From Dehalococcoidia bacterium (lineage in GTDB: Bacteria > Chloroflexota > Dehalococcoidia > Dehalococcoidales > BS750m-G39), in NCBI GenBank assembly GCA_050123275.1, contig JASFHK010000004.1:25577-89576 (forward strand): a stretch of 64,000 nucleotides of DNA, in the 5' to 3' direction. Every line of letters begins with the position of its first letter. Position 1 is the first letter of the stretch. The position numbers were made by a program, and so were the translations under genes. Shown piece by piece: positions 48,049 through 63,172 of the stretch. The notes beneath the pieces were generated by a model, which worked only from the letters and a program-made list of their open reading frames with translations, was not told the origin of the DNA and searched no databases.

Positions 48049-49095
48049 ATGTCGAAACGGATAGAGCGCATTATAGACGCCAACCTCAACCGCGCCGGCG
48101 AGGGGCTACATTTTCTTGAGGAAGTAGCGCGGCTGGTGCTCGACGACGCGGCGCTGACGCAAAACCTGAAGACCATCCGCCACGAAATCCTGCGCGGCGA
48201 CTGGGGCTTCAACCGTCGGCTGGTACAGTCGCGGGACGCCGCCAGCGATGTCGGCTTCGATATCGAGCTCGAAAACGAGCCCCGGGAGCTGCCCGTGGCG
48301 GTGGTGGCTAACTCCCGCCGCGTCCAGGAAGCGTTGAGAATACTGGAAGAGATGGCCAAGCTGCCCGAAACCGCGCCCGAAATGGAGGCCGTCAAGTTCA
48401 AGAAGGCCCGCTTCGCCCTCTACGCCATCGAGCAGGAGTTGCTGGGCCGGTTGACGCGCCTGGACAAGCTGAACGGGCTGACGGGGCTTTACGCCATACT
48501 GGATATTCAGGCGCTGGGCAAGCGTAAATACTTAAAAGTCGCCCAGGAGATGATTAAGGGCGGCGCCAGCACCATCCAGCTGCGCGACAAGTTTACCCCC
48601 CGGGCGGAGCTGCTTAACATAGCTCTAGAACTACGCAAGCTCTGTGTCGAAAAGGGCGTTCTCTTCATCGTCAACGACTACCTGGACATCGCCCTGGCGT
48701 CTAACGCCGACGGGCTGCACCTGGGGCAGGAGGATTTGCCCCTGTCCATAGCCCGCAAACTGCTGCCCGCGGACATGATACTGGGCGGCTCGGTGAACAC
48801 CGTGGAGCAGGCTAAAGCCGCCGAGGCCGCCGGCGCCGACTATATCGCCGTGGGCGCCATGTACCCGACGCCTTCCAAAGAGAAACCCAATGTGGTGGGG
48901 GTGGAGAGGCTGCGAAAGGTGCGGGGGACGGTGAGCGTGCTCCTGGTGGCTATCGGGGGTATAGATGAGGAAAACGCTGGTGAGGTGGCGGCTAACGGCG
49001 CCGACGCCGTGGCAGTAATCGGCGCTTTGATGAATGCCGAAGACATCGCCGAGGCCGCCCGTAATCTAATAAAAAGCTTTGAGGCAGGCAAATGA
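48049..49095 (+). CDS. thiE: Thiamine-phosphate synthase with an about 130-aa N-terminal extension
   Basis: The C-terminal about 210 aa are ThiE (GLYAILD, IQLRDK, VNDYLDIA, DGLHLGQEDL, IAVGAMYPT, VAIGGI). The N-terminal domain IIDANLNRAGEGLHFLEE is of unknown role. Confidence 0.85.
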   Translation: MSKRIERIIDANLNRAGEGLHFLEEVARLVLDDAALTQNLKTIRHEILRGDWGFNRRLVQSRDAASDVGFDIELENEPRELPVAVVANSRRVQEALRILEEMAKLPETAPEMEAVKFKKARFALYAIEQELLGRLTRLDKLNGLTGLYAILDIQALGKRKYLKVAQEMIKGGASTIQLRDKFTPRAELLNIALELRKLCVEKGVLFIVNDYLDIALASNADGLHLGQEDLPLSIARKLLPADMILGGSVNTVEQAKAAEAAGADYIAVGAMYPTPSKEKPNVVGVERLRKVRGTVSVLLVAIGGIDEENAGEVAANGADAVAVIGALMNAEDIAEAARNLIKSFEAGK

Positions 49096-49745
49096 ACGGG
49101 CTAACCGATAATCTGGAACCCATCGCCGACAAAATCAGGGAGGAGCTGACGGCCAAGGACGCCGCCCGCGAAAAGATATTGCCCCGCTGCCGCGACGCCA
49201 TCAGGCATTGCAGCCGGGCCATCCGCGCCGTCCACCGCCAGGAGTTCGACAAAGCCCGTGAGCTGCTCAACGGGGCGCGCGGTCTTCTCAGTGAGGCCGA
49301 AGTCGCTTCCACCGACCACAGCGAGCTGGGCTATACCGGCTTCGCCCGCGACGCCCAGAAAGAGTTCGCCGAGGGCAGCATTACGCTGGCGCTGGTGACG
49401 GGGAAGCCGATGCCGACGCCCGAAGAGCTGGGCGTGGAAGCCGTCTCTTACCTGAAGGGGATGGGAGAGGCCGTCGGCGAATTACGGCGTTACCTGCTCG
49501 ACAGCATGAGGCACGGCGACCTTTCCAAGGGGGAGGGGTTGCTCACGGCCATGGATGACATCTACAACACGCTGGTGACCATGGACTTCCCCGACGCCAT
49601 CACCGGGGGCCTGCGCCATACCACCGACATGGTACGCGGCGTGCTGGAGAGGACGCGCAGCGACCTGACGCTGGCTATAGGGCAGCAGGGGGTGGCGGAC
49701 AAGCTGGACAGGCTCTTCCAGAAAAAAGAAGGGAGAGACGGCTAG
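49092..49745 (+). CDS. Translin-family-like protein (tentative)
   Basis: 217-aa all-helical protein. The pattern RE.IL..CRDAIR.C..AIRAVHR.EF..A ... GEAVGELRRY recalls translin/TRAX. Assigned from memory of the family pattern only. Confidence 0.5.
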   Translation: MNGLTDNLEPIADKIREELTAKDAAREKILPRCRDAIRHCSRAIRAVHRQEFDKARELLNGARGLLSEAEVASTDHSELGYTGFARDAQKEFAEGSITLALVTGKPMPTPEELGVEAVSYLKGMGEAVGELRRYLLDSMRHGDLSKGEGLLTAMDDIYNTLVTMDFPDAITGGLRHTTDMVRGVLERTRSDLTLAIGQQGVADKLDRLFQKKEGRDG

Positions 49746-49775
49746 ACCATCTCTCCCCGTTTTAGCCTTTTTATA
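49721..49775. terminator. Bidirectional intrinsic terminator between convergent genes
   Basis: GGGAGAGA (49731-49738), 11-nt loop, TCTCTCCC (49750-49757). On the plus strand it is followed by cgTTTTagccTTTTT. On the minus strand it is followed by TTCTTTTTTC. Confidence 0.6.
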
Positions 49776-49778
49776 CAG

Positions 49779-50393
49779 CTATTTCAGGTTCGGTTTGTCT
49801 TTCTTAACGAAGTGAACCGAAGCGTAGCGGCAGAGCCGTTCTTTGCCCGGCAGCTGCTTGAGCCGGTTGACCTCGTCCTCGCCGATGACGGATATGGTGC
49901 CGAAGCGGTCCTGTACGTCCTGAGCGAAGGCGCAGTGGTCGCATTCGTAGTTGCGGTCGCAGAGACGGTAGGAAACGGCGCCCAGCTCCAGCCAGACGTG
50001 TTTCTTGGCCTCTTCCTGCTCGGCTTCGCTCAATGCCAGGGCGATTGACTTCTCCAGGTCTTCGACGCGGAAGGGTTTTATCAGATAGTCGAGCAACCCC
50101 AGCCTTTGGGCCTTGTCCCGGGTTTCCTTGGAGGGGTAGGCGGTAATGATGACCCCTTTTGCCTTGGGGTCGTGCTCCCTGGCGTGCTCGAAGACCTGCA
50201 GGCCGTCTATTCCCGGCAGCTTGAGGTCGAGAACGATGGCCCCGAAGGCCTCTTTTTCGATTCTCTTCAGCGCCTCCTCGCCGCTGGCGACGACATCTAC
50301 GTCGTAGCCGTCTTCGACCAGCCAGTCCCGCACGCTTTCCCTGACCACAGCCTCATCTTCGACGATAAGGATTTTCCTCTTTTGAGCGGCCAT
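49779..50393 (-). CDS. Response-regulator receiver + uncharacterised Cys module (C-x5-C-x2-C-x33-C)
   Basis: Receiver KILIVEDE..VLDLKLPGIDG..ITAY. The C-terminal 70 aa are HVWLELGAVSYRLCDRNYECDHCAFAQD...LPGKERLCRY. Confidence 0.8.
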   Translation of the reverse strand: MAAQKRKILIVEDEAVVRESVRDWLVEDGYDVDVVASGEEALKRIEKEAFGAIVLDLKLPGIDGLQVFEHAREHDPKAKGVIITAYPSKETRDKAQRLGLLDYLIKPFRVEDLEKSIALALSEAEQEEAKKHVWLELGAVSYRLCDRNYECDHCAFAQDVQDRFGTISVIGEDEVNRLKQLPGKERLCRYASVHFVKKDKPNLK

Positions 50394-50404
50394 TTTTCCC
50401 TCCT

Positions 50405-50448
50405 AAAAACAAGGGGTATGCTTATGCCTGATGTATAGCATACCCCTT
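50405..50448 (-). terminator. Intrinsic terminator between the two receiver genes
   Basis: 12-bp stem AAGGGGTATGCT/AGCATACCCCTT (50411-50422 / 50437-50448) with a 14-nt loop. On the minus strand it is followed by GTTTTTA, then the RBS AGGAGGG of the next gene. Confidence 0.6.
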
Positions 50449-50469
50449 GACTGCTGTCAATAACTTTTT

Positions 50470-51480
50470 TCACCGTTTGGCTTTAGCCATTTTTTCCTTT
50501 TTGCGTAGCGCCTCGCGCCGCGCCTGGAGCTTGGCCAGTTTTTGCTGGGTGTAGTCTTCCATGAGCTGGCCGAACTCGCAGCTGGCGCAGGTAAAGAGGT
50601 TGGAGCAGACGCGGTGGGAGACATCGCCCTTGAGGGTGTAGCGGCAAAGGCGCTGGCTGCCCGGTAGCTCCTTGAATTTCTCGGCGATTTCGTCCATCTG
50701 GGGGACGTTACCGCTGGCCATCAGCTCCTGCATCTCCTGGTCGAAGGCGCAGCTCAGGCAATCGTAGTCGCGCGTACAGAGACGGTAGGGAACCAGCCCC
50801 ATCTTCATCCAGAGGCACTGCCTGGGCTTTATCGGGGTAGCGGCTGTATCGGGTTTGACCTCGGGCTCGGCCATGGCTACCTTGGCTTTTCTTATCCAGA
50901 CCCTGGCTTCTATGTTGCCCGGGGCGACGACCAGAATAGCCTGCAGCTCTCTCAGCGCCTCGGCGTAGCGGCCGGCTTCGAAGTGAGCCTTGCCCTTCTT
51001 GAGGTAGACCGGAATCTCTTCCGGGGCGATGGTTACCGGCTCGATAACCTCTTTCTCCTCGATTACGGGCGGCTCGACCTTGGCTTCTGGCGGCTTTTGC
51101 TTGGGCTCAATCTTGACCTGGACGGGGCCCAGCGTCTTGCGGAGCAGCGATTCCATCTCGTCGAGCTTAAAGGGCTTGGACAGGTAGTCGATGGCGCCCA
51201 CCTTCATCGCCTCTACGGCCGTATCCACCGAAGGGTAGGCGGTGATGATGATGCCGTTTATCTTCGGGTTCTTCTGCCTGGCTTCCCGGAGCACCTCGAG
51301 CCCGTTCTTGCCGGGCAGTTTCATGTCGAGGATGAGCAGGCTGAACTCGCGCTCTTTCATCGACTTGAGCGCCGCTTCGCCGTGCTCGGCGGTCTCGACC
51401 AGGTAGCCTTCATCGTGGAGCCAGTCGCGCAGGGATTCCCTCATGATGGTTTCGTCTTCTACAATCAGTATCGGTTCCAT
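50470..51480 (-). CDS. Response-regulator receiver + TPR-like linker + extended Cys module (two C-x5-C-x2-C motifs)
   Basis: Receiver ILIVEDE..ILDMKLPGKNG..ITAY and a helical AEALRELQAIL segment. The C-terminus is CLWMKMGLVPYRLCTRDYDCLSCAFDQE...LPGSQRLCRY...VCSNLFTCASC. The likely start is MEPILIV at 51480; the ORF track extends to 51555. Confidence 0.8.
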   Translation of the reverse strand: MEPILIVEDETIMRESLRDWLHDEGYLVETAEHGEAALKSMKEREFSLLILDMKLPGKNGLEVLREARQKNPKINGIIITAYPSVDTAVEAMKVGAIDYLSKPFKLDEMESLLRKTLGPVQVKIEPKQKPPEAKVEPPVIEEKEVIEPVTIAPEEIPVYLKKGKAHFEAGRYAEALRELQAILVVAPGNIEARVWIRKAKVAMAEPEVKPDTAATPIKPRQCLWMKMGLVPYRLCTRDYDCLSCAFDQEMQELMASGNVPQMDEIAEKFKELPGSQRLCRYTLKGDVSHRVCSNLFTCASCEFGQLMEDYTQQKLAKLQARREALRKKEKMAKAKR

Positions 51481-51544
51481 TTTGTTGCCTCCTTGGCTTT
51501 GTTGTCTACCCTCTATACATGCAATTTTCTTGCCAAAGGAGGTT

Positions 51545-51850
51545 TTGCTTCCCACCCAATACCCACCCTACAGAGGTGTTACCTCTATATACTTCTCTTG
51601 TCGCCGCCCCACCCTGATTTTATCTATTCTCGCCTGTCACCCTTTAAGGTAAAGAGGGGCTCTGCCCCTCTTAAACACCACGTGTGAATTGGGGGATTCG
51701 AAGAGGGGACATATAAGGGGTTCCACCCTTATAGGGAGGGTTTTGGGTGGGAAAGAAAAACGTGCGCTGACAGGGTTATGGCTTTGAGATTGCTTCGTTG
51801 CGCTCGCAATGACAGTACGCGTGAAGCGCGCTCGCAATGACTGTGAAGTA
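51545..51850. repeat. Mosaic of repeats R1 (forward + inverted), R3 (inverted) and R2 (x2), filling a whole intergenic region
   Basis: R1 forward lies at 51548-51615 and R3 inverted at 51640-51679. R1 inverted lies at 51725-51785 (ggtgggaaagaaaaacgtgcgctgacagg). R2 lies at 51786-51813, with a partial second unit at 51818-51843. cttcccacccaatacccaccc (51548) is near-perfectly inverted at 51736-51762. Confidence 0.8.
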
Positions 51851-51863
51851 AAAAGGGAGCAGA

Positions 51864-53246
51864 CTAGCGCTTGCTGTCTACTTTCTTTACGCTTTTCGAG
51901 TTCCTGGCGTTAAGCCCGTAGGCCTTGGCTTTGTTGTAGAGCGTCATCCGCGAGATACCGAGCACTTTAGCCGCCTCGGTATAGTTGCCGCCGGTCTCGG
52001 CGAGCACTTCCTCGATGTGGCTTCTCTCCATCTCCTTGAGGTTCCGCGTCTTGGAGACGGCGTGATAGGGCTCTACGTTATTGGGGGAGATGTCGGTGAC
52101 ATCTATCTGGGTGCCCTTGGCCAGTATCACCGCCCTTTCCACCGCGTTTTCCAGCTCCCTTACGTTGCCGGGCCACTCGTATCTCATCATAAAAGCGTTG
52201 GCCTCGGAGGAAAAGCTGTTGATTTCCTTGCTGTTCTCGGTGGCGAACTTTTTGAGGAAGTACTGTGCCAGCAGGGGAATGTCCTCTTTTCTTTCCCGGA
52301 GCGAGGGTATTTCGATATTGACCACGTTCAAGCGGTAGTAGAGGTCCTCACGGAACTTGCCTTCGGCGATAGCCTTTTTCATGTCGCGGTTGGTCGCCGA
52401 GATGACCCTGACGTCCACCTTGATAAGCTCGTTGCCGCCGACGCGGGCGAACTCCTTTTCCTCAAGGACGCGGAGGAGGTGCACCTGGATATTGGAGCTC
52501 ATCTCGCCGATTTCGTCGAGGAAAAGGGTGCCGCGGTTGGCCGCCTCGAATTTGCCCTGCTTGCGGGCGTAGGCCCCGGTGAAGGCGCCTTTCTCGTGGC
52601 CGAAAAGCTCACTTTCGAGCAGGCTTTCGGGCAGAGCGGCGCAGCTCACGGCGATGAAAGGCTTGTCGGAGCGCAGGCTCTGGGCGTGAATGGCCTGGGC
52701 CACCAGTTCCTTGCCCGTGCCGGTCTCGCCGGTGATGAGCACGGTGGCGTTGCTCTTGCTGACCACCTTGATAATCTCGATTACCTGCTGCATGCGGGTG
52801 CTCTTGGCGATGATGTTTTCGAAGCGGAATCGCTTTTCCAGCTTCTGGTGCAGGGCGATGTTCTCTTCGATAAGCCCCTGGCGCTCGACAAGCTTTTCGA
52901 TGAGCAGCTCGGCTCTCTCCGGGCAGAAGGGCTTTTCTATGTAATCGTAGGCGCCTTCCCTCATGGCGGAGATGGCGGTGGGGATACTGCCGTAGGCGGT
53001 GATGATGATGACCGAGATGTCGGGGTCTATTTTCTTGACGGCTTTCATCAGGGCGATGCCGTCCATGCCCGGCATGACCAAATCGGTGATAACGATGCCG
53101 GGTTTCTCCATGCGTATAATTTTAAGCGCGGCTTCGCCGCTTTCGGCGGTGAGCACGTCGTGCCCCACGTCTTTCAGCCAGTCGCGGAGAGAGTCGCGGA
53201 CGATAGCTTCGTCGTCAATTACCAGAATCTTTACTTTTTTCTTCAT
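51864..53246 (-). CDS. Sigma-54-dependent two-component response regulator (NtrC family)
   Basis: Receiver (VITDLVMPGMDG), AAA+ domain with GETGTGKE, the sigma-54 contact loop EKGAFTGA and FLDEIGE, and a C-terminal Fis-type HTH AAKVLGISRMTLYNK. Confidence 0.92.
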   Translation of the reverse strand: MKKKVKILVIDDEAIVRDSLRDWLKDVGHDVLTAESGEAALKIIRMEKPGIVITDLVMPGMDGIALMKAVKKIDPDISVIIITAYGSIPTAISAMREGAYDYIEKPFCPERAELLIEKLVERQGLIEENIALHQKLEKRFRFENIIAKSTRMQQVIEIIKVVSKSNATVLITGETGTGKELVAQAIHAQSLRSDKPFIAVSCAALPESLLESELFGHEKGAFTGAYARKQGKFEAANRGTLFLDEIGEMSSNIQVHLLRVLEEKEFARVGGNELIKVDVRVISATNRDMKKAIAEGKFREDLYYRLNVVNIEIPSLRERKEDIPLLAQYFLKKFATENSKEINSFSSEANAFMMRYEWPGNVRELENAVERAVILAKGTQIDVTDISPNNVEPYHAVSKTRNLKEMERSHIEEVLAETGGNYTEAAKVLGISRMTLYNKAKAYGLNARNSKSVKKVDSKR

Positions 53247-55179
53247 GGCGCAGTGGTAGCGAGATGGTGAAAGTGCTACCCTTTCCTTCCTTGCTTTGCA
53301 CTTCGATTTTGCCCTGGTGGCGCTGGATGATGCCGTAGGCCACTGCCAGCCCCAGGCCTACCCCTTTACCCTTGCCCTTGGTGGTGAAAAAGGGGGTAAA
53401 AAGCTTGAGCTTGTCTTCCTCGGAGATGCCGTGCCCCGTGTCCTGTACCTCTATGTGGAGGTAGCTGCTGTCCGCCGAGGTGCGCACCGTGAGCACGCCG
53501 CCGTCGGGCATGGCCTGGATGGCGTTCATCACCAGGTTGGTGCATACCTGCTGGAGCTGGTCGAAGTCGGCCATGACGTTGGGCAGTTTGGGGTCGAGTC
53601 CCTTGGTTACCTCTATCCTTTGCAGCTCGGCGGAGTGGCCGGCCATGTCGAGGACGCGCTCGACCACCTCGTTGGCGTTTATCTCCCTGAGGCTGGGCTT
53701 TGACTGGCGGGCGAAGTCGAGCAGATTGCGAATCAGCTTGGTGCTGCGGGTAAGCTCGGTTTCCATTTTATTGAGATAGTCGGCGGCGGTATCCTTGGCG
53801 ATGCCGTCGCCGGCCAGTTTCTTGGCTAAAAGCTGGGTGTAGACCAGGACGCCCGCCAGCGGGTTGTTAACCTCGTGGGCGATGGAAGCCGCCATCTGCC
53901 CCAGTGAGGTCAACTTTTCCGCCTGGATTAGGTCCTGCTGGGTGTCCTTGAGGCGGCTGAGCACGTAGGGCCAGCACATGTCGGCCTCGGCCAGGTTCTG
54001 GCAGACGGCTGTCGCCAGCTCGCGGCAGGTCTCGTAGCCGCAGGCGCCGCAGTTTATCTGGTCGTTGGGGTCGGCTTTGCCCAGCTGCTTGAGCACGGCG
54101 TTGATATCCTGCTCGCTGGGGGTGGGCAGGCCGACGCTGCGGGTGGTGAAACGGCGGCTCAGGTCAATATCGGCGTATTCCTTGAGGTCTTTCTCGGCCT
54201 GGGCGGGGTCGGCCTGGCTCCGGGCGTAATCGATGAGGCGCTCCTTGCGCCGGAAGCCGCTCAAGTCGTTATCGATAACGGGCCCGTCGATACAGCCGTG
54301 GCAGAAGTGCAGGTTAATGAGACGGGTATCGATGTCGCCCTTGGCGAACTCGCGCAGTATCTTGGTCACGTATTCCTTACCGTGGGCGTTTATGGTCTCG
54401 TTTTTAATGATGTCGTCGGGCAGTTGCGCCGCCCGGAAAAGCCCCTTGGAGAGGGGGAAGAGCCGCCCCAGGTCGGATTTGGGACCGGAAAAGGCCTCTT
54501 CCTCTTCTTTTTCGGGGACGATTTTTTTGGCGGCGAACATCTCTTTAAGTTCGGCGAAGGTGAGCACGGCGTCGATAACGCCGGATACCTTTTCATCCTT
54601 GCTTTCCGCCTTCTTGGCCACGCAGGGGCCGATGAAGACCACCTTGGCCTTGGGGTTGTATTTCCATTTTATCAATCTACCCATGGCTATCATCGGCGAA
54701 ACGATGGGGGCCAGGTTGCCGATGAGCTGAGGGTAATACTTTTCGATGTAGGTCACCGCCGCCGGGCAGTTGGTGGAGAGTACGGGCTTGCCGGTGTACT
54801 TGGTAAAGAAGCGCGTGTATTCGCGGGCGATAAGCTCGGCGCCGAAAGCGTCTTCCATGACCTCGCTGAAGCCCAGCTTCTTGATGCCGGCCACCAGCTG
54901 GCCGGCCTTGCAACCGAGCAGGGCGGCGGGGAAGGATGAGGAAAGAACGGCGATAACGTTATCGGGGTTATCGGACAGCAGCTGCCAGGTGACGCCGATG
55001 TCGCTTTCCACCTGTTTCGCCTTGGGCACGCAGACCCGCAGGCACTTGCCGCAGACGATACAGCGTTCCTTAATTACCTGAGCCAGGCCGTCTTCGACCT
55101 TTATCGCCTTGCAGGGGCAGCCGCGGATACAGGCGTAACAGCGCTTGCATTTTTCCTTGTCGGTATAGACGATGCTCAT
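53215..55179 (-). CDS. Histidine kinase with ferredoxin + [FeFe]-hydrogenase-like + Fe-S-cluster sensor region
   Basis: N-terminal CKRCYACIRGCP / CIVCGKCLRVC. Hydrogenase-large-subunit-like motifs STNCPAAV, IGPCVAKKAE and HFCHGCIDGP, followed by CGACGYETCRELATAVC. HisKA SIAHEVNNPL and HATPase motifs N (LVMNAIQAM), G1 (DTGHGI) and G2 (GVGLGLAV). Confidence 0.85.
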   Translation of the reverse strand: MSIVYTDKEKCKRCYACIRGCPCKAIKVEDGLAQVIKERCIVCGKCLRVCVPKAKQVESDIGVTWQLLSDNPDNVIAVLSSSFPAALLGCKAGQLVAGIKKLGFSEVMEDAFGAELIAREYTRFFTKYTGKPVLSTNCPAAVTYIEKYYPQLIGNLAPIVSPMIAMGRLIKWKYNPKAKVVFIGPCVAKKAESKDEKVSGVIDAVLTFAELKEMFAAKKIVPEKEEEEAFSGPKSDLGRLFPLSKGLFRAAQLPDDIIKNETINAHGKEYVTKILREFAKGDIDTRLINLHFCHGCIDGPVIDNDLSGFRRKERLIDYARSQADPAQAEKDLKEYADIDLSRRFTTRSVGLPTPSEQDINAVLKQLGKADPNDQINCGACGYETCRELATAVCQNLAEADMCWPYVLSRLKDTQQDLIQAEKLTSLGQMAASIAHEVNNPLAGVLVYTQLLAKKLAGDGIAKDTAADYLNKMETELTRSTKLIRNLLDFARQSKPSLREINANEVVERVLDMAGHSAELQRIEVTKGLDPKLPNVMADFDQLQQVCTNLVMNAIQAMPDGGVLTVRTSADSSYLHIEVQDTGHGISEEDKLKLFTPFFTTKGKGKGVGLGLAVAYGIIQRHQGKIEVQSKEGKGSTFTISLPLRHEEKSKDSGN

Positions 55180-55180
55180 T

Positions 55181-56281
55181 TCAGCTCCTTGCTCTCACCG
55201 CCGGCTTGGTCTTGCCGCGGGACGACGGAATTTTCAGCTCTTGCCTGAGGTGCGCCACCGAGCGCCGCGAAATGGAAACGCCGAATTTCTCCTGTAATCT
55301 TGCTCTTATTGCCTCGTCGGAGTCAAGCCCGCTTTCGCTGTCGAGGAGCTGCTTGAGCAGCTCTTTCTTGAAGCGGCGGGGGCGGGGGAAAAAGTCGCTC
55401 AAGGGGACCTCTTTGCCCTGGGGGGTTTCCAGGCTCTTGCCCCTGACAGCGCGGCTTATCGAGCTGGGCGCCAACCCTATCTTTTCGGCCAGCTCTTTCC
55501 GGGTGAAGGGCAGCAGGGCTTTGGCTTCGCCGGAATCGAGGTAGAGAGCCTGGCGCTCGATAACGCCCTGTATGATGCGGCTGACCGTGTCCTGGCGGGT
55601 GTTAATCAGCTCCAGCTGGGCCAGCAGCTTTTTGGCTTTTTTAAGTTCGCTGGAGCTTAGGGCGCCGTCCGCCTTGAGCCGCTCGAGTCTCTCGTAGTCA
55701 ATCTCGTATTTACCCCGCGCCAGCGCCGGCGAGAAATAGCCGATAACGAAGCCCTCACGCCGCTTTTCCAGCGAAGCCACCTTGGCATAACGCATTACGT
55801 CGGGGTTGAGGGTGGAGGGATGATAAAACTCGCTCTGGATGGAAAAATCGTTAATCAGCTCGTTTATCTCTTGCACCTCGTCCGGCTTCAGGCCGCACTC
55901 GGCGGCGATTCGCTCGGGAGCCATGCCCGTTTCGGGGAAGAGGAAATGGCGCTTGAAGTTCTCCAGCCCCATCTTCCTTATGTGCTCCACGATTTGCCGC
56001 TTGTTGAGCAGCAATGATTCTATATCCAGCGAGCCGCTGTCGGCGGCGATGTCTTCTTTAAGCTGGTAAAAGCGGGGGGAAATGTCGGTCCCGGGCAGAC
56101 GCTGGCGGCGGATGAGTTTCTCCTCGCCGTAGAGCTTCCGAAAGAGGGGAGAGCGCTCTATCTCGACGATGAGCCGACGGAACTCGTCCTCGGGCATCTC
56201 GAGTAGTGTAGCCTGCTCCATGCGTAGCACCTGGCTGAGACGCTGTTGCATCTCCATGGATTGCTGCTGTTTTGCCGCCAT
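55181..56281 (-). CDS. rpoN: Compact RNA polymerase sigma-54 homologue (366 aa)
   Basis: Region I-like MEMQQRLSQVLRMEQATLLEMPEDEFRRLIVEIERSPLF. C-terminal half collinear with sigma-54: TRQDTVSRIIQGVIERQALYL, HTH LLPFTRKELAEKIGLAPSSISRAVRGKSLETPQG..LSDFF, and RpoN-box-like ISRRSVAHLRQELKIPSS. Confidence 0.72.
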   Translation of the reverse strand: MAAKQQQSMEMQQRLSQVLRMEQATLLEMPEDEFRRLIVEIERSPLFRKLYGEEKLIRRQRLPGTDISPRFYQLKEDIAADSGSLDIESLLLNKRQIVEHIRKMGLENFKRHFLFPETGMAPERIAAECGLKPDEVQEINELINDFSIQSEFYHPSTLNPDVMRYAKVASLEKRREGFVIGYFSPALARGKYEIDYERLERLKADGALSSSELKKAKKLLAQLELINTRQDTVSRIIQGVIERQALYLDSGEAKALLPFTRKELAEKIGLAPSSISRAVRGKSLETPQGKEVPLSDFFPRPRRFKKELLKQLLDSESGLDSDEAIRARLQEKFGVSISRRSVAHLRQELKIPSSRGKTKPAVRARS

Positions 56282-56451: not shown

Positions 56452-59400
56452 GTGGAACCTAAGATTGGCGTATACATCTGTCATTGTGGGACTAACATTG
56501 CCGGGACGGTGGATGTGGGGGCGGTTACCGAGTTCGCCCGTACCTTGCCCGCGGTAGCCATTGCCCGGGATTACACCTATATGTGTTCCGACCCGGGGCA
56601 GGACCTTATCCGCCAGGATATCAAAGAACTGGGGCTTAATCGCATCGTGGTGGCTTCCTGTTCGCCGCTGATGCACGAACGGACCTACCGTCGGGTATGC
56701 CAGGAATCGGGCCTTAACCCCTATCTCTTCGAAATGGCCAATATCCGCGAGCACGTTTCCTGGATAACCGAGGACAAGGCGGCGGCTACCGAGAAAGCCA
56801 AAGCCCTGGTCAGCGCCGCCGTCAGGCGCGTTTACTACCAGGAGCCGCTGGAAACCAGAGAGGTCCCGGTTAACCCCAACACGCTGGTGGTGGGGGGTGG
56901 TGTGGCCGGCATCCAGGCCGCCCTGGAGATTGCCGATTCCAAACACAAAGTATATCTGGTGGAGAAGGAGCCCAGCGTCGGCGGGCACATGATACAGCTG
57001 GACAAGACCTTCCCCACTCTGGACTGTTCCGCCTGTATTCTGACCCCCAAGATGAGCCTGGTCGGCGCCCATCCCTATATCGAGCTGATGTCCTACAGCG
57101 AGGTGACCGGTGTCGAGGGCTACGTGGGTAACTTCAAGGTTCAGATAAACAAGAAAGCCCGCTACGTTGATGTTGATAAATGCACCGGCTGCGGCGAGTG
57201 TTCCCAGGTCTGCCCGGTTACGGTGCCTAACGAGTTCGACCTGGGCTTGGGCAACCGCAAGGCGATTTATCGCCCCTTCCCCCAGGCGGTACCCAACGCC
57301 TTTACCATAGACAAGAAGGGCTATCCGCCCTGCCGCGTCGCCTGCCCGGCAGGGGTTAACGCCCAGGGCTACGTCGCCCTTATCTCGCAGGGCAAGTTCA
57401 AGGAAGCCCTCGAGGTATTGCGGCGGACGATGCCCTTTGCCGGCGTTTGCGGCCGCGTTTGCACCCACCCCTGCGAGAGGGACTGCGAGCGGGGCAAGGT
57501 GGACGAGCCGGTTTCCATCCGCGCGCTGAAGCGCTTCATGGCCGACTACGAGTTGAGTGTGGGGCGAGAAAAGGCGGCGCCGGTGGAGAGGACTAAAGAA
57601 GACAAGGTAGCCGTCATCGGCTCGGGCCCGGCCGGGCTTGCCTGCGCCTACGACTTAATCCGGGAGGGCTACCCGGTTACCGTTTTCGAGGCCGCGCCCA
57701 AGACGGGCGGGCTGCTCCGCTACGGCATCCCCGAATACCGTCTGCCTGATAAGGTGCTGGATAACGAGGTCGGCTACCTGGAGGAGATGGGCATCGAGAT
57801 AAAGACCGGCCACGCCGTGAGGAAGTTCGAGGAGCTCTTCAACCAGGGCTACCAGGCGATATTCATGGCGGCGGGGGCGGGGGTAAGCCAGAAGATGGGC
57901 ATCCCCGACGAGGACGCCGAAGGCGCCCTGCACGCCCTCGATTTCCTGAACAAGGTTAACTCCGGCAAGAAGGTCAGCCTCGGCGAGAAAGTGGCCGTTA
58001 TCGGCGGCGGTAACGCCGCCATAGACTCGGCGCGGGTCGCCAGGCGGCTGGGCGTCAAGGAAGTTTCCATCGTCTATCGCCGTTCGCGCGAGGAAATGCC
58101 CGCCGTCAGCGACGAGATTAACGAGGCCGAGCGGGAAGGCATCAAGTTGCACATACTGGCGGCGCCGGCCAAGGTCATCGCCGAGGATGGCAAGGTGACC
58201 GGCCTCCAGTGCATCAAGATGGAGCTGGGCGAGCCCGACGCCAGCCGGCGCCGGCGCCCGATACCGGTTGAAGGCTCCGAGTTCGAGATGGAGGTGGACA
58301 ACGTCATCTTCGCCGTGGGGCAGGGAGTGAACAAGGAAGCGCTGCCCGGCGAGCTGGAGTACACGGGGTGGGGTACCGTGGTCGTTGACCCCGCCACCCT
58401 CCAGACCAACATCGAGGGCGTTTTCGCCGGCGGGGACGTGGTTTCGGGCCCCTCCGACGTTATCGCCGCCGTCGCCGCGGGCAAGGAAGCCGCGATGTCC
58501 ATCGACCGTTTCCTGCGGGGAGTCGACCTCAAAGAGGGTCGCCCCGTTCCCATAACCAAAGCCACGGATATCCCCAAGGAGGACGTCCAGGCCAAGCTGC
58601 GGCAGGAGATGCCCACCCTGGACGTCAGCAAGCGGCAGGGCTTCGCCGAAGTCGAACTGGGCCTGGACGAGAAGACGGCCATGGAGGAGGCCAAGCGCTG
58701 CCTGAACTGCGGCGTTTGCTCGGAATGTATGGAGTGCCTCAAAGCCTGCCAGGTCGGGGCCATCAACCAGGATATGATCGAGGAGACCATCGAGGTCGAT
58801 GTGGGCAACATCATCGTCGCCACCGGCTACGATACCTTCGACCCCACCCCTCTCTACCAGTACGGCTACGGGCGGCTGGATAACGTCCTTACCTCGCTGG
58901 AGTTCGAGAGGATGATTAACGCCTCGGGCCCCACGTCGGGCGACGTGCTGCTCAAGGACGGCTCCCATCCCAAGACGGTGGGTATCATCCACTGCGTGGG
59001 CAGCCGCGACGAGAACTATCACGAGTACTGCTCGCAGGTCTGCTGCATGTACTCGATGAAACTAAGCCACCTGATAAGAGACCACGTGCCCGGCTCTCAG
59101 GTCTACGAGTTCTATATCGACCTGCGCTGCGTGGGTAAAGCTTTCGAGGAGTTTTACAACCGCGTCCTCGACGAGGGGACCATGTTCATCCGCGGGCGCC
59201 CCGGCGAGGTGACCGATATCGCCGAGACTCCCGAAGAAGAGGGCAAGCTCATCATCGTCGGCGAGGACACCCTGGTCGGACGCCAGCGCCGCGTGCCGGT
59301 GGACATGGTGGTGCTGAGCACGGCCTTGCAACCCCAGCCGGACGCCGATAAGGTCGCCCACCTCTTCTCCATCAGCCGCAGCGCCGACGGCTTCTTCCTG

Positions 59401-59793
59401 GAGAAGCATCCCAAGCTCGACCCTGTGGCCACCATGAGCGACGGTATTTTCGTCGTCGGCTGCTGCCAGTCGCCCAAGGATATTCCCAACAGCGTGGCAC
59501 AGGCGTCGGCGGCGGCGGCCAGGGCGCTGGCGATGATTAGCGCCGGCTCCATAGAAATCGAAGCGGCTACCTCCGAGGTTGACCCCGAGCTTTGCTCCGG
59601 CTGTAAGACTTGCTCCGATCTTTGCCCCTTCCACGCCATATCATTTGACGAAGAGAAGAAGATAAGTATAATAAATGAGACGCTATGCAAGGGCTGCGGC
59701 GTTTGCGTCGCCGCCTGCCCCAGCGGCGCCATCAAGGGCAAGCACTTTACCGCCGACGAGCTTTTGGCCGAGATAGAAGGGGCGCTGGTATAA
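56452..59793 (+). CDS. hdrL: HdrA-like flavoprotein with inserted GltD/NfnB-type NAD(P)H:FAD module (HdrL-type)
   Basis: N-terminus KIGVYICHCGTNIAG and FAD fold VVGGGVAGIQAAL. The insertion carries PFAGVCGRVCTHPCERDCERG, VIGSGPAGLACAYDL, VIGGGNAAIDSARVA and FAGGDVV. The HdrA signature CVGSRDENYHEYCSQVCC and four ferredoxin-type Cys motifs are present. GTG start behind AGGAGAATAGGAGG; the ORF track begins 30 nt earlier. Confidence 0.85.
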   Translation: MEPKIGVYICHCGTNIAGTVDVGAVTEFARTLPAVAIARDYTYMCSDPGQDLIRQDIKELGLNRIVVASCSPLMHERTYRRVCQESGLNPYLFEMANIREHVSWITEDKAAATEKAKALVSAAVRRVYYQEPLETREVPVNPNTLVVGGGVAGIQAALEIADSKHKVYLVEKEPSVGGHMIQLDKTFPTLDCSACILTPKMSLVGAHPYIELMSYSEVTGVEGYVGNFKVQINKKARYVDVDKCTGCGECSQVCPVTVPNEFDLGLGNRKAIYRPFPQAVPNAFTIDKKGYPPCRVACPAGVNAQGYVALISQGKFKEALEVLRRTMPFAGVCGRVCTHPCERDCERGKVDEPVSIRALKRFMADYELSVGREKAAPVERTKEDKVAVIGSGPAGLACAYDLIREGYPVTVFEAAPKTGGLLRYGIPEYRLPDKVLDNEVGYLEEMGIEIKTGHAVRKFEELFNQGYQAIFMAAGAGVSQKMGIPDEDAEGALHALDFLNKVNSGKKVSLGEKVAVIGGGNAAIDSARVARRLGVKEVSIVYRRSREEMPAVSDEINEAEREGIKLHILAAPAKVIAEDGKVTGLQCIKMELGEPDASRRRRPIPVEGSEFEMEVDNVIFAVGQGVNKEALPGELEYTGWGTVVVDPATLQTNIEGVFAGGDVVSGPSDVIAAVAAGKEAAMSIDRFLRGVDLKEGRPVPITKATDIPKEDVQAKLRQEMPTLDVSKRQGFAEVELGLDEKTAMEEAKRCLNCGVCSECMECLKACQVGAINQDMIEETIEVDVGNIIVATGYDTFDPTPLYQYGYGRLDNVLTSLEFERMINASGPTSGDVLLKDGSHPKTVGIIHCVGSRDENYHEYCSQVCCMYSMKLSHLIRDHVPGSQVYEFYIDLRCVGKAFEEFYNRVLDEGTMFIRGRPGEVTDIAETPEEEGKLIIVGEDTLVGRQRRVPVDMVVLSTALQPQPDADKVAHLFSISRSADGFFLEKHPKLDPVATMSDGIFVVGCCQSPKDIPNSVAQASAAAARALAMISAGSIEIEAATSEVDPELCSGCKTCSDLCPFHAISFDEEKKISIINETLCKGCGVCVAACPSGAIKGKHFTADELLAEIEGALV

Positions 59794-59830
59794 GCCGGCC
59801 CCGTTAACCTTAAATAAAGGAGGAGTCTAA

Positions 59831-60412
59831 ATGGCTGACACGGTGGTCAAAACTCCTCCCGCCGTAGTGACGGACTTTCTTAACGAGGTCTGCTCCATAC
59901 CCGGCGGCGAGGCGATTAATTCTTGTATTCAATGCGGGGTGTGTACCGGCTCCTGTCCCACCGCCAACCAGTGGGACTACCCGCCGCGGCGGGTCATCGC
60001 CATGGTGCGGGCCGGTTTGAGGGACGAGTTACTGTCGAGCAACTCGATGTGGTTCTGCGTTTCCTGCTACACCTGCACGGTGCGCTGCCCGCGGGATATC
60101 AAGCCCGCCGATATCATGCACGCTCTGGAGATTATCTCTCTCCGCAGCGGCAAGAGCACCCGCCGCAACCGCACGCCGATTATGTACCAGTGCTTCGTCG
60201 ATTCCGCCCGTAAATACGGCCGGGTCTACGAGATGGGAATGATGATTAATCTTTTCATGAAGACCAACCCCTTCTCCGCCCTCAAGCTGGCGCCGTTGGG
60301 GATGGGGCTGTTTTTCCACAAACGCATGCCCCTGAGCCCCGAACGAATCAAGGGCATGGACGGCCTCAAAGCCATCCTCAAGAAAGCCAGGGAACTGGGA
60401 GGTGCCGAATAA
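59831..60412 (+). CDS. hdrC: Heterodisulfide reductase subunit C-like (2x[4Fe-4S])
   Basis: CIQCGVCTGSCP and CVSCYTCTVRCP, 193 aa. Confidence 0.85.
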   Translation: MADTVVKTPPAVVTDFLNEVCSIPGGEAINSCIQCGVCTGSCPTANQWDYPPRRVIAMVRAGLRDELLSSNSMWFCVSCYTCTVRCPRDIKPADIMHALEIISLRSGKSTRRNRTPIMYQCFVDSARKYGRVYEMGMMINLFMKTNPFSALKLAPLGMGLFFHKRMPLSPERIKGMDGLKAILKKARELGGAE

Positions 60413-61278
60413 TGAAACACTACACATACTATCCCGGTTGTTCGGCGGAGGCAACGGCGTCGCCCCTGGGCATCTCGGTGCCCCCGGTGGCCAAGAAGCT
60501 GGAGATGGACCTTAACGAGCTTGAGGACTGGAACTGCTGTGGCTCGACGCCTTTCTGGTCGGTGGACAAGCTGGAGGCGGCGGCATTGGCCAGCCGCAAC
60601 CTGGCTCTGGCCGAAAAGCGGGGCTTCGACCTGGTGACGCCCTGCTCCAACTGCTTCGTCATCCTGCACGAGACCAATAACCACCTCAAGAGGCTGCCCG
60701 ATTTCAAGGACAAGGTGGACCAGGCGCTGGCGGCGGGCAAGATGAAATATAACGGCACCGTCAACGTGCGCCACCTCGCCGAGGTGCTCTACACCGATAT
60801 TACCCCCGAAGGCATCGCCGAAAAGGTAACCAAGCCCTTAAAGGGTCTCAAGGTGGGCGCTTACTACGGCTGCCAGCTGGTGCGCCCCGACGGCTTCGAC
60901 GACCCCGAATCCCCCCACTCGCTGGACGAGATAATCACCGCGCTGGGCGCCGAGGCCGTTGACTGGGAGATGAAGGCCCGCTGCTGCGGCAGCTCGCTGG
61001 TCATGCCCGAACAGGAAGTGGCGCTGGGGCTGGTCAACAAGCTGCTCCGCAACGCCACCGAGCACGGGGCCGAGTGCCTGATTACTCCCTGCCCATTGTG
61101 CCAGATTAACCTCGACGCCTATCAGAGCCTGGTTAACAGCCAGTTCAAAACGCGCTATAATATACCCGTACTTTTTGTTACCCAACTGATAGGGGTCGCG
61201 CTGGGTATTCCCGCCAACGAGCTGGCTTTATCGGGTAATATCGTCTCTCCGATGAAGGTGTTAGCCCCCTATCTCTAG
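60412..61278 (+). CDS. hdrB: Heterodisulfide reductase subunit B-like (two CCG domains)
   Basis: WNCCGST ... TPCSNCF and ARCCGSS ... TPCPLCQ. 1-nt overlap with the hdrC stop. Confidence 0.88.
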   Translation: MKHYTYYPGCSAEATASPLGISVPPVAKKLEMDLNELEDWNCCGSTPFWSVDKLEAAALASRNLALAEKRGFDLVTPCSNCFVILHETNNHLKRLPDFKDKVDQALAAGKMKYNGTVNVRHLAEVLYTDITPEGIAEKVTKPLKGLKVGAYYGCQLVRPDGFDDPESPHSLDEIITALGAEAVDWEMKARCCGSSLVMPEQEVALGLVNKLLRNATEHGAECLITPCPLCQINLDAYQSLVNSQFKTRYNIPVLFVTQLIGVALGIPANELALSGNIVSPMKVLAPYL

Positions 61279-61375: not shown

Positions 61376-61801
61376 ATGACCGCTTTTTTCTATCACCTCA
61401 TGCCCGCCGAGGTCGCCGTCCACTTCAGCGACGGTACAGCCGACGCCTGGATCAGCCGCTCGATGATGCTGGTTTTAGCGTTGCTGCCCCAAGGGCTGCT
61501 GGTCCTGGTGGGGCTGGCGCTGGCCTGGATAATGTCGCTCATGGTCAGCCGCTCCTGGCCTGCCGAGGGGGCGAAGACCGACCCCAGGTCCATCGTCGCC
61601 CTCATGGGCAACATGGTGGCCCTGCCCCAGCTCGTCTTCGGCTTTGCAATGGCCGATATTTTTGTTTACAATGCATACCAGATTCATCTGCCGTCCGTAT
61701 GGATAATATCGCTGGTGGTGGTGGTGGCGGGGGCTATCGTTATCGGGGTGTTTTTCACCCGGGCGATAAGGCGGGAGCGCGCCGGACGGCGTAATCCTTA
61801 A
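61376..61801 (+). CDS. DUF1648-like membrane protein (the true start is probably upstream and non-canonical)
   Basis: The in-frame upstream sequence KKGFSFRWGYVAVPLIVFLLLAG (from about 61298) looks like the missing first TM helix. HLMPAEVAVHFSDGTADAW matches the DUF1648 pattern. There is no ATG/GTG/TTG between 61279 and 61376 in this frame. Confidence 0.55.
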   Translation: MTAFFYHLMPAEVAVHFSDGTADAWISRSMMLVLALLPQGLLVLVGLALAWIMSLMVSRSWPAEGAKTDPRSIVALMGNMVALPQLVFGFAMADIFVYNAYQIHLPSVWIISLVVVVAGAIVIGVFFTRAIRRERAGRRNP

Positions 61802-61813
61802 AGGAGCATTGTA

Positions 61814-63172
61814 GTGACCGAAGCCAGAGCCGTTGACATGGAAAAACTCGTTTCTCTTTGCCGCCGACGCGGCTTTATCTTCCCCAGCAGCGAAATCTAC
61901 GGGGGACTTTCCAGTTGCTGGGACTACGGGCCGCTGGGGGTGGAGCTGAAGCGCAACATAAAGCAGGCGTGGTGGCGGGCAGTGGTGCAACGGCGCGACG
62001 ACATGGTGGGGCTGGACGCCAGCATCCTGATGCACCCCCAGGTCTGGCAGGCGAGCGGTCACGTCGAGGGTTTTTCCGATCCTCTGGTGGAGTGCAAGCA
62101 ATGCCACAAGCGCTGGCGCAGCGACGACTTTGAGGGCGACAGGTGCCCCGACTGCGGCGGCGAGCTTACCGAGCCGCGCCTTTTCAACCTGATGTTCAAG
62201 ACCTTCATCGGCCCCGTCGAGGAAGAGGGCAACGTGGTCTATTTGCGTCCGGAGACGGCGCAGGGCATGTTCGTTAACTTCGAGAACATACTTAACACCA
62301 CCCGCAAGCGCCTGCCCTTCGGCATCGCCCAGATAGGCAAGTCCTTCCGCAACGAGGTCACCACGGGCAATTTTATCTTCCGCTCCCGCGAGTTCGAGCA
62401 GATGGAGATAGAGTACTTCGTCAGGCCGGGCGCGGATAAAGAGTGGTTCGACTACTGGGTAGAGGAGAGGCTCAACTGGTACGTGAGCCTGGGTATCAAG
62501 AAGGAGCACCTCAAGTTGCGCCAGCACGGCAAGGAAGAGCTGGCCCATTACGCCCGCGACTGTTACGACATCAACTATCTCTACCCGATGGGCTGGGCGG
62601 AGATGGAGGGCATCGCCAACCGCGGCGACTTCGACCTGGTGCAGCACGCCAAGTCCAGCGGCAAGAACCTGAACTATTACGACGAGGAAACCAAGGAGCA
62701 TATCGTTCCCTATATCATCGAGCCTTCGGCGGGCGTCGACCGCACCGCACTGGCCGTACTCTGCGACGCCTACGACGAGGACGTCGCCGACGGCGAGGCG
62801 CGCGTCCTGCTCCGCTTCCATCCCTCTATAGCCCCTCTCAAGGTGGCCGTGCTGCCTTTGAGCCGCAAGGAGACGCTGGCGCCCTTAGCCCGCGATGTCT
62901 ACGCCGAACTGCGCCAGTGCTGGATGACCGGCTACGACGAAGCCCAGTCAATCGGGCGCCGCTACCGCCGCCAGGACGAAATCGGCACGCCCTTCTGCGT
63001 CACCGCGGACTTCGAGTCGCTGGAGGACAAACAGGTCACCATCCGCGAGCGCGACAGCCTGCGGCAGATACGCGTCCCCATTGACACTCTCAAAGACACC
63101 CTGCAGGCCAAGCTGGACGGGGAAGACCTTTTCGTTTTGCCCGAAGGGGGCAAGATTTGGAAAGAGGGGTAG
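61814..63172 (+). CDS. glyQS: Glycine--tRNA ligase (alpha2 dimeric type)
   Basis: [30 protein letters not shown] and EPSAGVDR, with a C-terminal anticodon-binding domain. GTG start behind AAGGAG. Confidence 0.95.

Follow-up and report, generated by a model that had tools for sequence, protein, structure and literature searches.

The stretch of DNA analyzed here, referred to as the window, is 64,000 nucleotides long and comes from a Dehalococcoidia bacterium (GenBank assembly GCA_050123275.1, contig JASFHK010000004.1, positions 25,577 to 89,576 of the forward strand). Between its positions 49,779 and 51,480 it carries two paralogous genes, whose products, called below the long and the short protein, have an N-terminal receiver domain (REC) and a C-terminal cysteine-rich module. 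This "Cys8" module represents a genuine and widespread domain family, of which no description was found. Its gene belongs to a unit of kinase, NtrC-type activator, sigma-54 promoter and Cys8 gene, usually situated near HdrL genes, that is conserved across Chloroflexota and Desulfobacterota. The window has the genes for a compact sigma-54, a histidine kinase, an NtrC-type activator, the long protein and the short protein in this order on the minus strand:

56452-61278, plus strand: genes of HdrL-like (an HdrA/GltD-type fusion), HdrC-like and HdrB-like proteins, divergent from the sigma-54 operon
55181-56281, minus strand: compact sigma-54, 366 amino acids (Pfam Sigma54_DBD)
53215-55179, minus strand: histidine kinase with a ferredoxin-like, Fe-hydrogenase-like and "FeS" sensor region (Pfam; syntenic in about 50 loci)
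51864-53246, minus strand: NtrC-type sigma-54 activator, REC-AAA+-HTH_8
50470-51480, minus strand: long paralogue, 336 amino acids, REC-linker-TPR-Cys8 module (open reading frame with an AAGGAGG Shine-Dalgarno sequence before its ATG)
49779-50393, minus strand: short paralogue, 204 amino acids, REC and truncated module (open reading frame; Pfam REC at residues 8-117; 13 orthologues of like architecture)

The two genes had been singled out in an earlier reading of the window (the original prediction), which described them as paralogues with a common C-terminal Cys-rich module, adjoining a sigma-54/Hdr locus. This description stands. The open reading frames lie at the coordinates then given, all the quoted motifs are found in both proteins, and the adjoining locus is seen in the domain annotation of the window. 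The receivers of the two proteins are 50% identical and their C-terminal modules 43% identical over 63 residues. A GTG at 51555, proposed by the open-reading-frame list as the start of the long gene, was dropped because it would overlap the promoter described below. The true start of the HdrL-like gene is the GTG at 56452, giving an uninterrupted protein of 1,113 amino acids.

Both proteins are predicted to be genuine response regulators. Their receivers pass the Pfam PF00072 gathering score of 30.2 with 91.9 bits (E 3.8e-26) for the short and 104.3 bits (E 5.3e-30) for the long protein. Upon alignment with the NtrC receiver, the pocket residues are E12-D13, D56, T84 and K106 in the short protein and E8-D9, D52, T80 and K102 in the long one. 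The receiver of the NtrC-type activator is 43-46% identical to those of both module proteins, and all three operon receivers (43-50% mutual identity) have a RESLRDWL helix in common. The parts of the two proteins are situated as follows:

51142-51471, minus strand: receiver domain of the long protein, residues 4-113, with Asp52, Thr80 and Lys102 (Pfam Response_reg, E 5.3e-30)
50881-51006, minus strand: single TPR-like hairpin of the long protein, residues 159-200 (Pfam TPR_14, 26.0 bits against a cut-off of 23.5)
50713-50823, minus strand: module repeat unit 1, with Cys222, Cys235, Cys241 and Cys244, then a helix (alignments, HHalign)
50542-50652, minus strand: module repeat unit 2, with Cys279, Cys292, Cys298 and Cys301, then a helix (alignments, HHalign)
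50476-50577, minus strand: long basic C-terminal helix, ending in QQKLAKLQARREALRKKEKMAKAK, kept in the REC-TPR and TPR classes of homologues
49782-50006, minus strand: truncated module of the short protein, His132-x12-Cys145-x5-Cys151-x2-Cys154, then Cys188-x5-His194 and the stop

The Cys8 module of the long protein occupies residues 219-336 (118 amino acids). It is a tandem duplication of a unit of about 37 residues, in which C-x12-C-x5-C-x2-C is followed by a helix and whose consensus is C-x-[W/Y]-M-x2-G-V-V-S-Y-[R/K]-x-C-x5-C-x2-C-x-F-D-Q. Upon aligning unit 1 with unit 2, HHalign gave a probability of 99.2% and an E-value of 6.9e-20, with 36 columns in register. The long protein has the features that define the family: eight cysteines, W224 after the first of them and R280 after the fifth. 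The original prediction had divided the motif differently. It took the cysteine of RLCRY as the fourth ligand of the first motif, 32 or 33 residues beyond the C-x2-C. The actual spacing is 33 residues in the short protein and 34 in the long one, and the RLCRY cysteine opens unit 2 according to HHalign and the alignments. A further conserved ligand (Cys222 of the long, His132 of the short protein) precedes by 12 residues the cysteine that had been taken as the first. The second C-x5-C-x2-C of the long protein (VCSNLFTCASC) is present as described; however, it is not an added motif, since it completes unit 2.

The short protein has no complete second unit, and its match to the family hidden Markov model covers model positions 1-64 only. 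It had been described as stopping just after RLCRY. It does end close by, 14 residues later, but it is a conserved truncated variant that keeps C188-x5-H194 and not the basic form. Thirteen orthologues of the short form, 70-79% identical and from different metagenome-assembled genomes, end at the same point. The C-R-Y-x-S-x-H-F ending is kept in all 13 and the upstream histidine in 12 of them. Because the same truncated form is kept in these orthologues, the truncation is not an accident of this genome. A scan with the family model found two module copies in the window, those of the long and the short protein.

Behind unit 2, the module continues into the basic helix (module residues 84-117), in which L100, R103, R104, A106 and L107 are at least 90% conserved. 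In the AlphaFold2 (AF2) model this helix has a predicted local distance difference test score (pLDDT) of 97-98. The basic tail is missing from the short paralogue and from family members fused to a GcvH-like domain. The TPR-like hairpin is also kept in homologues that have TPR and module and no receiver.

The size of the family was established by a profile search of 1.84 billion representative proteins, clustered at 50% identity. It found 399 clusters with E-values up to 1e-3, 125 of them up to 1e-10, and nearly all full-length members have two units. In a set of 105 representatives sharing no more than 50% pairwise identity, conservation stands at 95% for Cys1 and at 99-100% for each of Cys2 to Cys8, and no cysteine is exchanged for histidine; the only other conserved residues are one Trp, two Gly, two Arg and one Gln. 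With eight cysteines conserved to this degree in such divergent proteins, the pattern is far beyond chance. A second large-database search with the family profile gave the TPR-module subfamily only, under uninformative names. Proteins of 82-112 residues consisting of the module only were rejected as an architecture of their own, being mostly truncated gene calls that start at internal Met residues, on contigs of about 1 kb.

The module had been said to be assignable to no named domain, and this was borne out by searches of Pfam, NCBIfam and PDB sequences and profiles, none of which gave a match. The best of the zinc-finger and zinc-ribbon families in Pfam was zf-CHY, at E 0.17-0.27 and about 12-12.8 bits against a cut-off of 31.3, and the PDB profile search returned ZFAT alone, at E 8.3. 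The DNA-binding outputs Trans_reg_C, GerE, HTH_8 and LytTR had no match at E<=1 with the whole proteins or at E<=10 with the isolated modules. No profile of the Fer4 clan matched the module, whose spacing is C-x12-C-x5-C-x2-C and not C-x2-C-x2-C-x3-C-P. WhiB-like and FNR-type families likewise gave no Pfam match, and the order of spacings is the reverse of theirs. Paired C-x2-C knuckles are not found, as there is one C-x2-C per unit. The AF2 model of the module was obtained from a diverse alignment of 43 sequences with a pLDDT of 91.6; a shallow alignment of 23 sequences gave 59.5 and was unusable. In the model the C-x2-C is situated at the N-terminus of a helix and the first two ligands of each unit lie on separate strands. 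Foldseek found zero matches to it among 350,542 PDB chains, and searches of the literature turned up no description of the module. The original prediction had named a match to a known zinc-ribbon or DNA-binding family, or cysteines that vary among homologues, as observations that would speak against it; no such match was found, and the cysteines are near-invariant.

The partner domains were surveyed by comparing 97 family representatives with Pfam. The commonest partner is a C-terminal GCV_H domain (41 of 97), followed by a receiver (17 of 97) and TPR (5 of 97). Fer4 or Fer2 occurs in a few and a glycosyltransferase in one. One representative, P0077, has the architecture TPR-module-HisKA-HATPase_c, which places the module in the input position of an AtoS/ZraS-type kinase. 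No helix-turn-helix or other DNA-binding partner was present among the 97. P0087 has two complete modules in tandem ahead of a GcvH-like domain. In P0187 the order is module, Fer2, Fer4, a single extra unit and GcvH-like, and in P0219 it is Fer4, a single unit and GcvH-like, showing that the 37-residue unit can occur singly. The GcvH-like partner has no consistently placed lipoyl-lysine, and an analogy to the lipoate-binding LbpA of sHdr systems (PMC6067878) was for this reason discarded. Desulfobacterales, Syntrophobacteria, Desulfatiglans and Desulfococcaceae are rich in the GcvH-fused proteins, which are publicly named "glycine cleavage system protein H", and members from Dehalococcoidia are "hypothetical" or "TPR repeat protein". 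All named source organisms of the family belong to anaerobic lineages (Dehalococcoidia, Desulfobacterales, Syntrophobacteria, Desulfatiglans).

The control region of the long gene contains two elements:

51520-51535, minus strand: sigma-54 promoter TGGCAAGAAAATTGCA, 40 nucleotides upstream of the ATG, with one mismatch to TGGCAC-N5-TTGCA
51875-51891, minus strand: putative half-site for binding of the activator, CGTAAAGAAAGTAGACA, which overlaps ntrC at its 3' end and aligns with TGTAAAGAAAGTAGACA of loci L007 and L006

The promoter is also present before the orthologous gene in 51 of 54 Dehalococcoidia loci, and 38 of the 46 strong sigma-54 sites across 85 loci fall at the position of the long-gene promoter. 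The receiver-less TPR-module class, used as a negative control, has such a promoter in none of 28 loci. When GG and GC are required and up to 2-3 mismatches are allowed at the other positions, about 0.007-0.04 matches per interval of 140 nucleotides are expected by chance. Two marks of a sigma-54-dependent gene are found, namely a conserved -24 GG/-12 GC element and an NtrC-type gene directly upstream. The long gene thus has a conserved sigma-54 promoter of its own and is, by inference, the target of the adjacent activator. The original prediction missed this promoter, which would make the long gene more than a parallel output.

In many loci a palindrome, TGTAAAGAAA-N19-TTTCTTTACA, is situated 75-180 nucleotides upstream of the sigma-54 promoter (L026, L032, L038, L043, L046, L048, L050, L053, L062 and L070). 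It is likely the binding site of the NtrC-type activator, since its position is the usual one for such sites. The window and many of its closest relatives have one half-site only, followed by (A/G)TAGACA. Between ntrC and the long gene, the spacer (51536-51863) contains a repeat-rich insertion of about 290 nucleotides that is absent from L006 and L007. The insertion includes a direct repeat, GCGCTCGCAATGACAGT, present twice (51800-51844), GGGTGG/CCACCC motifs and a 44-nucleotide imperfect inverted repeat. It creates spurious open reading frames, for instance 51637-51837, and looks like a small mobile element or one resembling repetitive extragenic palindromes. Its GGGTGG/CCACCC repeats were rejected as activator sites, because they lie within the insertion and are found in the window alone. 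Another candidate sigma-54 site, at 56487-56502 on the plus strand, was discarded because it falls inside a conserved HdrA-type N-terminus, ICHCGTNIAG. In 15 loci searched for a second sigma-54 promoter separating the module gene from Hdr genes downstream of it, none was found.

The compact sigma-54 is matched by Pfam in its DNA-binding domain only; the models of the activator-interacting and core-binding domains have no match even at E<=1. Its N-terminus is Gln-rich and region-I-like, and it has an RpoN-box-like SRRSVAHLR. It is kept at 51-64% identity in about 50 Dehalococcoidia loci, and the promoters available for it to read are of the canonical -24/-12 type. The sensor region of the kinase comprises a ferredoxin-like dicluster, a domain resembling the large subunit of Fe-only hydrogenase (residues 76-300) and a PF04060 "FeS" domain, and the protein can be classed from this domain content as a hydrogenase-like sensory kinase.

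The neighborhood was compared by a scan of one genome per species, which gave 115 relatives, nearly all of them Dehalococcoidia/Dehalococcoidales. Of the 80 best loci, about 50 have the REC-TPR-module gene behind the genes for sigma-54, kinase and activator. About 25 Dehalococcoidia loci have adjoining HdrL-like genes, either divergent as in the window or downstream on the same strand. In L025, for example, the order is REC-TPR-module, HdrD-like, HdrL, MvhD/FlpD and HdrD-like. The short paralogue is confined to the closest loci, about 14 in number, where it takes varying positions in the operon. The receiver-less TPR-module genes are divergent from genes for a LuxR-type regulator and a PAS kinase. 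Both classes occur on one Dehalococcoidales chromosome, that of bin10 (CP070842.1), with REC-TPR-module in a sigma-54 operon (L068) and receiver-less TPR-module beside a LuxR-type two-component system (L084). Because one genome has both, the two classes are paralogues with separate regulation.

A parallel system is present in Desulfobacterota. The GcvH-fused form, of about 300-310 residues, has an N-terminal Cys8 module that is 28-40% identical to that of the window. In five of seven distinct neighborhoods its gene lies directly downstream of genes for a PAS-GAF kinase and an NtrC-type activator. A selenocysteine-type HdrL (1,300-1,390 residues) adjoins in five of the seven; FlpD/MvhD genes accompany it in three of these five, and L086 has an HdrC/B-like gene as well. 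A sigma-54 promoter was found 50-75 nucleotides upstream in all seven loci with enough upstream sequence. A scan of metagenomes enlarged the sample of this type to 80 loci. The promoter is present 43-134 nucleotides upstream in all 73 testable loci (5 perfect, 39 with one mismatch), and a sigma-54 activator core is encoded upstream on the same strand in 41 of 42. An HdrL-like gene is found within 26 of the 33 loci longer than 9 kb, and downstream on the same strand in 9 of 35. The conservation of the unit across the two phyla is based on these counts for promoter, activator and HdrL, with promoters in excess of chance expectation. The protein called "glycine cleavage system protein H" in Desulfobacterota thus resembles that of the window in its Cys8 module, sigma-54 promoter, upstream activator and HdrL neighborhood. 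However, the fusion partner and the kinase sensor differ between the phyla: a GcvH-like fold replaces REC-TPR, and PAS-GAF sensors replace the hydrogenase-like sensor. A gene for an archaemetzincin-like Peptidase_M54 of about 180 residues is situated between the activator gene and the module promoter in L088, L091, L093 and L094. The HdrL genes of L086, L091 and L093 are called as a fragment of about 60 residues and a protein of about 1,350 residues; a split of this kind usually points to an in-frame selenocysteine codon.

We favor reading Cys8 as a metal-center signaling or interaction module that does not bind DNA and that acts within a conserved kinase-NtrC-sigma-54 unit, usually beside HdrL genes; the probability of this composite is roughly one half. 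The system itself would be two-component and sigma-54 signaling with a new, putatively metal-binding domain. A sensory or interaction domain is preferred to an enzyme subunit or a DNA binder, because the module occurs as the input of a kinase (P0077), as the output of a receiver and as a free-standing sigma-54 target. The original prediction of redox-linked outputs in place of DNA-binding ones has gained circumstantial support from the adjacency of HdrL in two phyla, from the GcvH-like, Fer2/Fer4, TPR and kinase fusions, and from the lack of DNA-binding fusion partners among the 97 representatives.

The eight cysteines most likely hold two metal centers. Iron-sulfur (Fe-S) clusters have slightly better than even odds, and structural zinc is a serious but lesser possibility. 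Fe-S is favored because the named lineages are anaerobic, the sites are all-cysteine, some members are fused to Fer2 or Fer4, and RumA and HmdB offer precedents for the x5 and x2 spacings. RumA and HmdB have C-x5-C-x2-C [4Fe-4S] motifs that take their fourth ligand from a distance. The spacing of three ligands in the Cys8 unit is identical to theirs, whereas folds and functions are unrelated, so the likeness is one of spacing only. FNR- and WhiB-like [4Fe-4S] sensors have C-x2-C-x5-C and a distant cysteine. They share with Cys8 a small, mostly helical four-cysteine module, the x2 and x5 spacings with a distant cysteine, and a place in redox-responsive transcription circuits. They differ in that the order of the spacings is reversed in Cys8 (distant, x5, x2), which is in addition tandemly duplicated and has no match to Pfam Whib or to any structure. 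Treble-clef and zinc-ribbon Cys4 fingers resemble it in having four cysteines per unit and, according to the AF2 model, in the C-x2-C at a helix N-terminus. In contrast to them, Cys8 has no C-x2-C knuckle pair, its first ligands are 12 residues apart on separate strands, and no Pfam or Foldseek match links it to them.

A working scheme can be drawn for the operon. The kinase, with its hydrogenase-like Fe-S sensor, probably phosphorylates three related receivers, those of the activator, the long protein and the short protein; operon membership, the 43-50% identity among the receivers and the RESLRDWL helix suggest this phosphotransfer. The phosphorylated activator would then switch on the long gene by way of sigma-54. 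The long protein would be a phosphorylation-gated, metal-center-dependent effector or feedback element, which may drain phosphate or may bind the activator, sigma-54, the HdrL complex or another partner. The short protein would be a conserved one-site variant. PspA, NifL and HrpV are feedback modulators whose genes stand in sigma-54 units beside those of their activators PspF, NifA and HrpS. The long gene is like those of PspA, NifL and HrpV in being under a sigma-54 promoter beside an activator gene, with no relationship in sequence. In the window its product shares the receiver type of the activator, which would allow feedback; an anti-activator role is a hypothesis. RssB-type adaptors and REC-TPR proteins are comparable in having a canonical receiver, an output that probably works by protein contacts, and an operon that includes the cognate kinase. 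Unlike them, the long protein has an undescribed eight-cysteine output and its gene is the sigma-54 target of a sister regulator. A bolder form of the scheme, which we consider unlikely, makes Cys8 a new class of Fe-S redox sensor that reads or docks to the electron-bifurcating HdrL complex and feeds back on sigma-54/NtrC, the REC fusion integrating phosphorylation and redox state and the short paralogue, by way of one His-Cys3 site and a Cys-x5-His remnant, forming a metal-bridged dimer, or a heterodimer with the long protein.

Several points weigh against the favored reading. All-cysteine sites suit zinc as well as Fe-S, and nucleic acid is a possible ligand of the basic helix at the C-terminus of the REC-TPR and TPR classes. 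The specificity of phosphotransfer is deduced from the similarity of the receivers. The window's half-site for the activator is separated from the promoter by the 290-nucleotide insertion. The window's hdrL has no sigma-54 promoter and looks sigma-70-driven, and the link to Hdr is therefore one of adjacency only. The receiver-less TPR-module class adjoins LuxR-type systems and has neither a sigma-54 promoter nor Hdr genes, and because of this the module is not tied exclusively to the sigma-54/HdrL circuit.

An alternative is that the protein serves HdrL itself, as an Fe-S electron-transfer or accessory subunit, or as a maturation or adaptor factor, of an HdrL-HdrBC-MvhD complex, the receiver making the association dependent on phosphorylation. 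The first gene upstream of HdrD-like/HdrL/FlpD genes on the same strand is that of the module in L025, about 13 other Dehalococcoidia loci, L086, L093 and L094; some family members are fused to Fer2 and Fer4; and HdrL is nearby in the 26 of 33 loci mentioned above. However, HdrL is downstream on the same strand in only 9 of 35, and is often divergent or absent. The module is in addition found as a kinase input, as a receiver output and, in the receiver-less class, beside LuxR-type systems without Hdr, and the HdrL papers (PMC2702500, PMC5947623) mention no such subunit. We regard this explanation as rather unlikely.

It is more doubtful still that the module is a novel double zinc finger binding DNA or RNA, and both proteins ordinary response-regulator transcription factors. 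A receiver with a C-terminal output is the classic layout of such factors, the Cys4 units have their C-x2-C at a helix N-terminus, and the long protein ends in a conserved Lys/Arg-rich helix. Against this, Pfam contains no zinc-finger, zinc-ribbon or DNA-binding match and the PDB no Foldseek match; the commonest partner is a GcvH-like domain; the GcvH-fused members and the short paralogue are without the basic tail; and the family is confined to anaerobes among its named sources. That the receivers are mere phosphate sinks for the kinase/NtrC pathway, with the Cys-rich part a structural dimerization domain (zinc or disulfide), is improbable. In favor of such a sink are the close relationship of the three receivers, the placing of the long gene under the very pathway that its product could drain, as is typical of negative feedback, and the conservation of the short paralogue despite the loss of half its module. 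However, a sink needs no domain with eight invariant cysteines across two phyla, and in Desulfobacterota the conserved sigma-54 target is a Cys8 protein with no receiver.

In the favored reading, then, Cys8 is a good candidate for a new redox-signaling module. The regulatory context of its gene is robust and previously unreported. HdrL was placed between NADH and sulfite reduction when first described (PMC2702500), and in S. fumaroxidans HdrABC/HdrL was detected only with sulfate available (PMC5947623); neither of these papers mentions a sigma-54 system or a GcvH-like or Cys-rich partner. The paper on the sigma-54 regulome of D. vulgaris (PMC4641369) has no mention of Hdr, GcvH or the Cys8 module. 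Sulfate reducers, syntrophs and Dehalococcoidia contain HdrL-type complexes as abundant redox enzymes, which are expressed conditionally and whose function has yet to be settled. A conserved kinase/activator/sigma-54 unit whose invariant local target is an undescribed eight-cysteine gene provides a handle on the regulation and sensing of HdrL energy metabolism. The two-component repertoire gains a new output domain and, in one case, a new input domain, from a family now mis-annotated as "glycine cleavage system protein H", "TPR repeat protein" or "hypothetical". With 118 residues, an AF2 pLDDT of 91.6 and no known fold relative, the module is a well-behaved target for metal analysis and structure determination.

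Two hairpins flank the short gene:

50410-50449, minus strand: conserved hairpin in the gap between the two module genes, with a 13-bp stem and GUUUUU behind it
49730-49758, minus strand: intrinsic terminator after the short gene, 13-bp stem and T-run

The intergenic hairpin has a folding energy of -23 kcal/mol (z -3.3). It had been called a strong terminator. The hairpin is real and its stem is kept with compensatory changes in six related loci, but the U-tract is not kept there, so that the name is borne out in part only. A sigma-70-like promoter overlaps it (TTGACA at 50460-50455, a 17-nucleotide spacer and TATACA at 50437-50432), and TTGACA-like hexamers recur directly upstream of the hairpin in L008 and L011. 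Because of this overlap and these hexamers, the palindrome AAGGGTA…TACCCTT may serve as an operator or attenuator instead of a terminator.

Two further conserved open reading frames flank the region. The first, of 448 residues, is situated beside the HdrB-like gene (61475-62821, minus strand) and belongs to no Pfam family. The second (49092-49745, plus strand), of 217 residues, has no Pfam family and a weak Translin-like match (E 0.007). It lies downstream of a ThiD2-ThiE fusion gene and is syntenic in L007 and L012.

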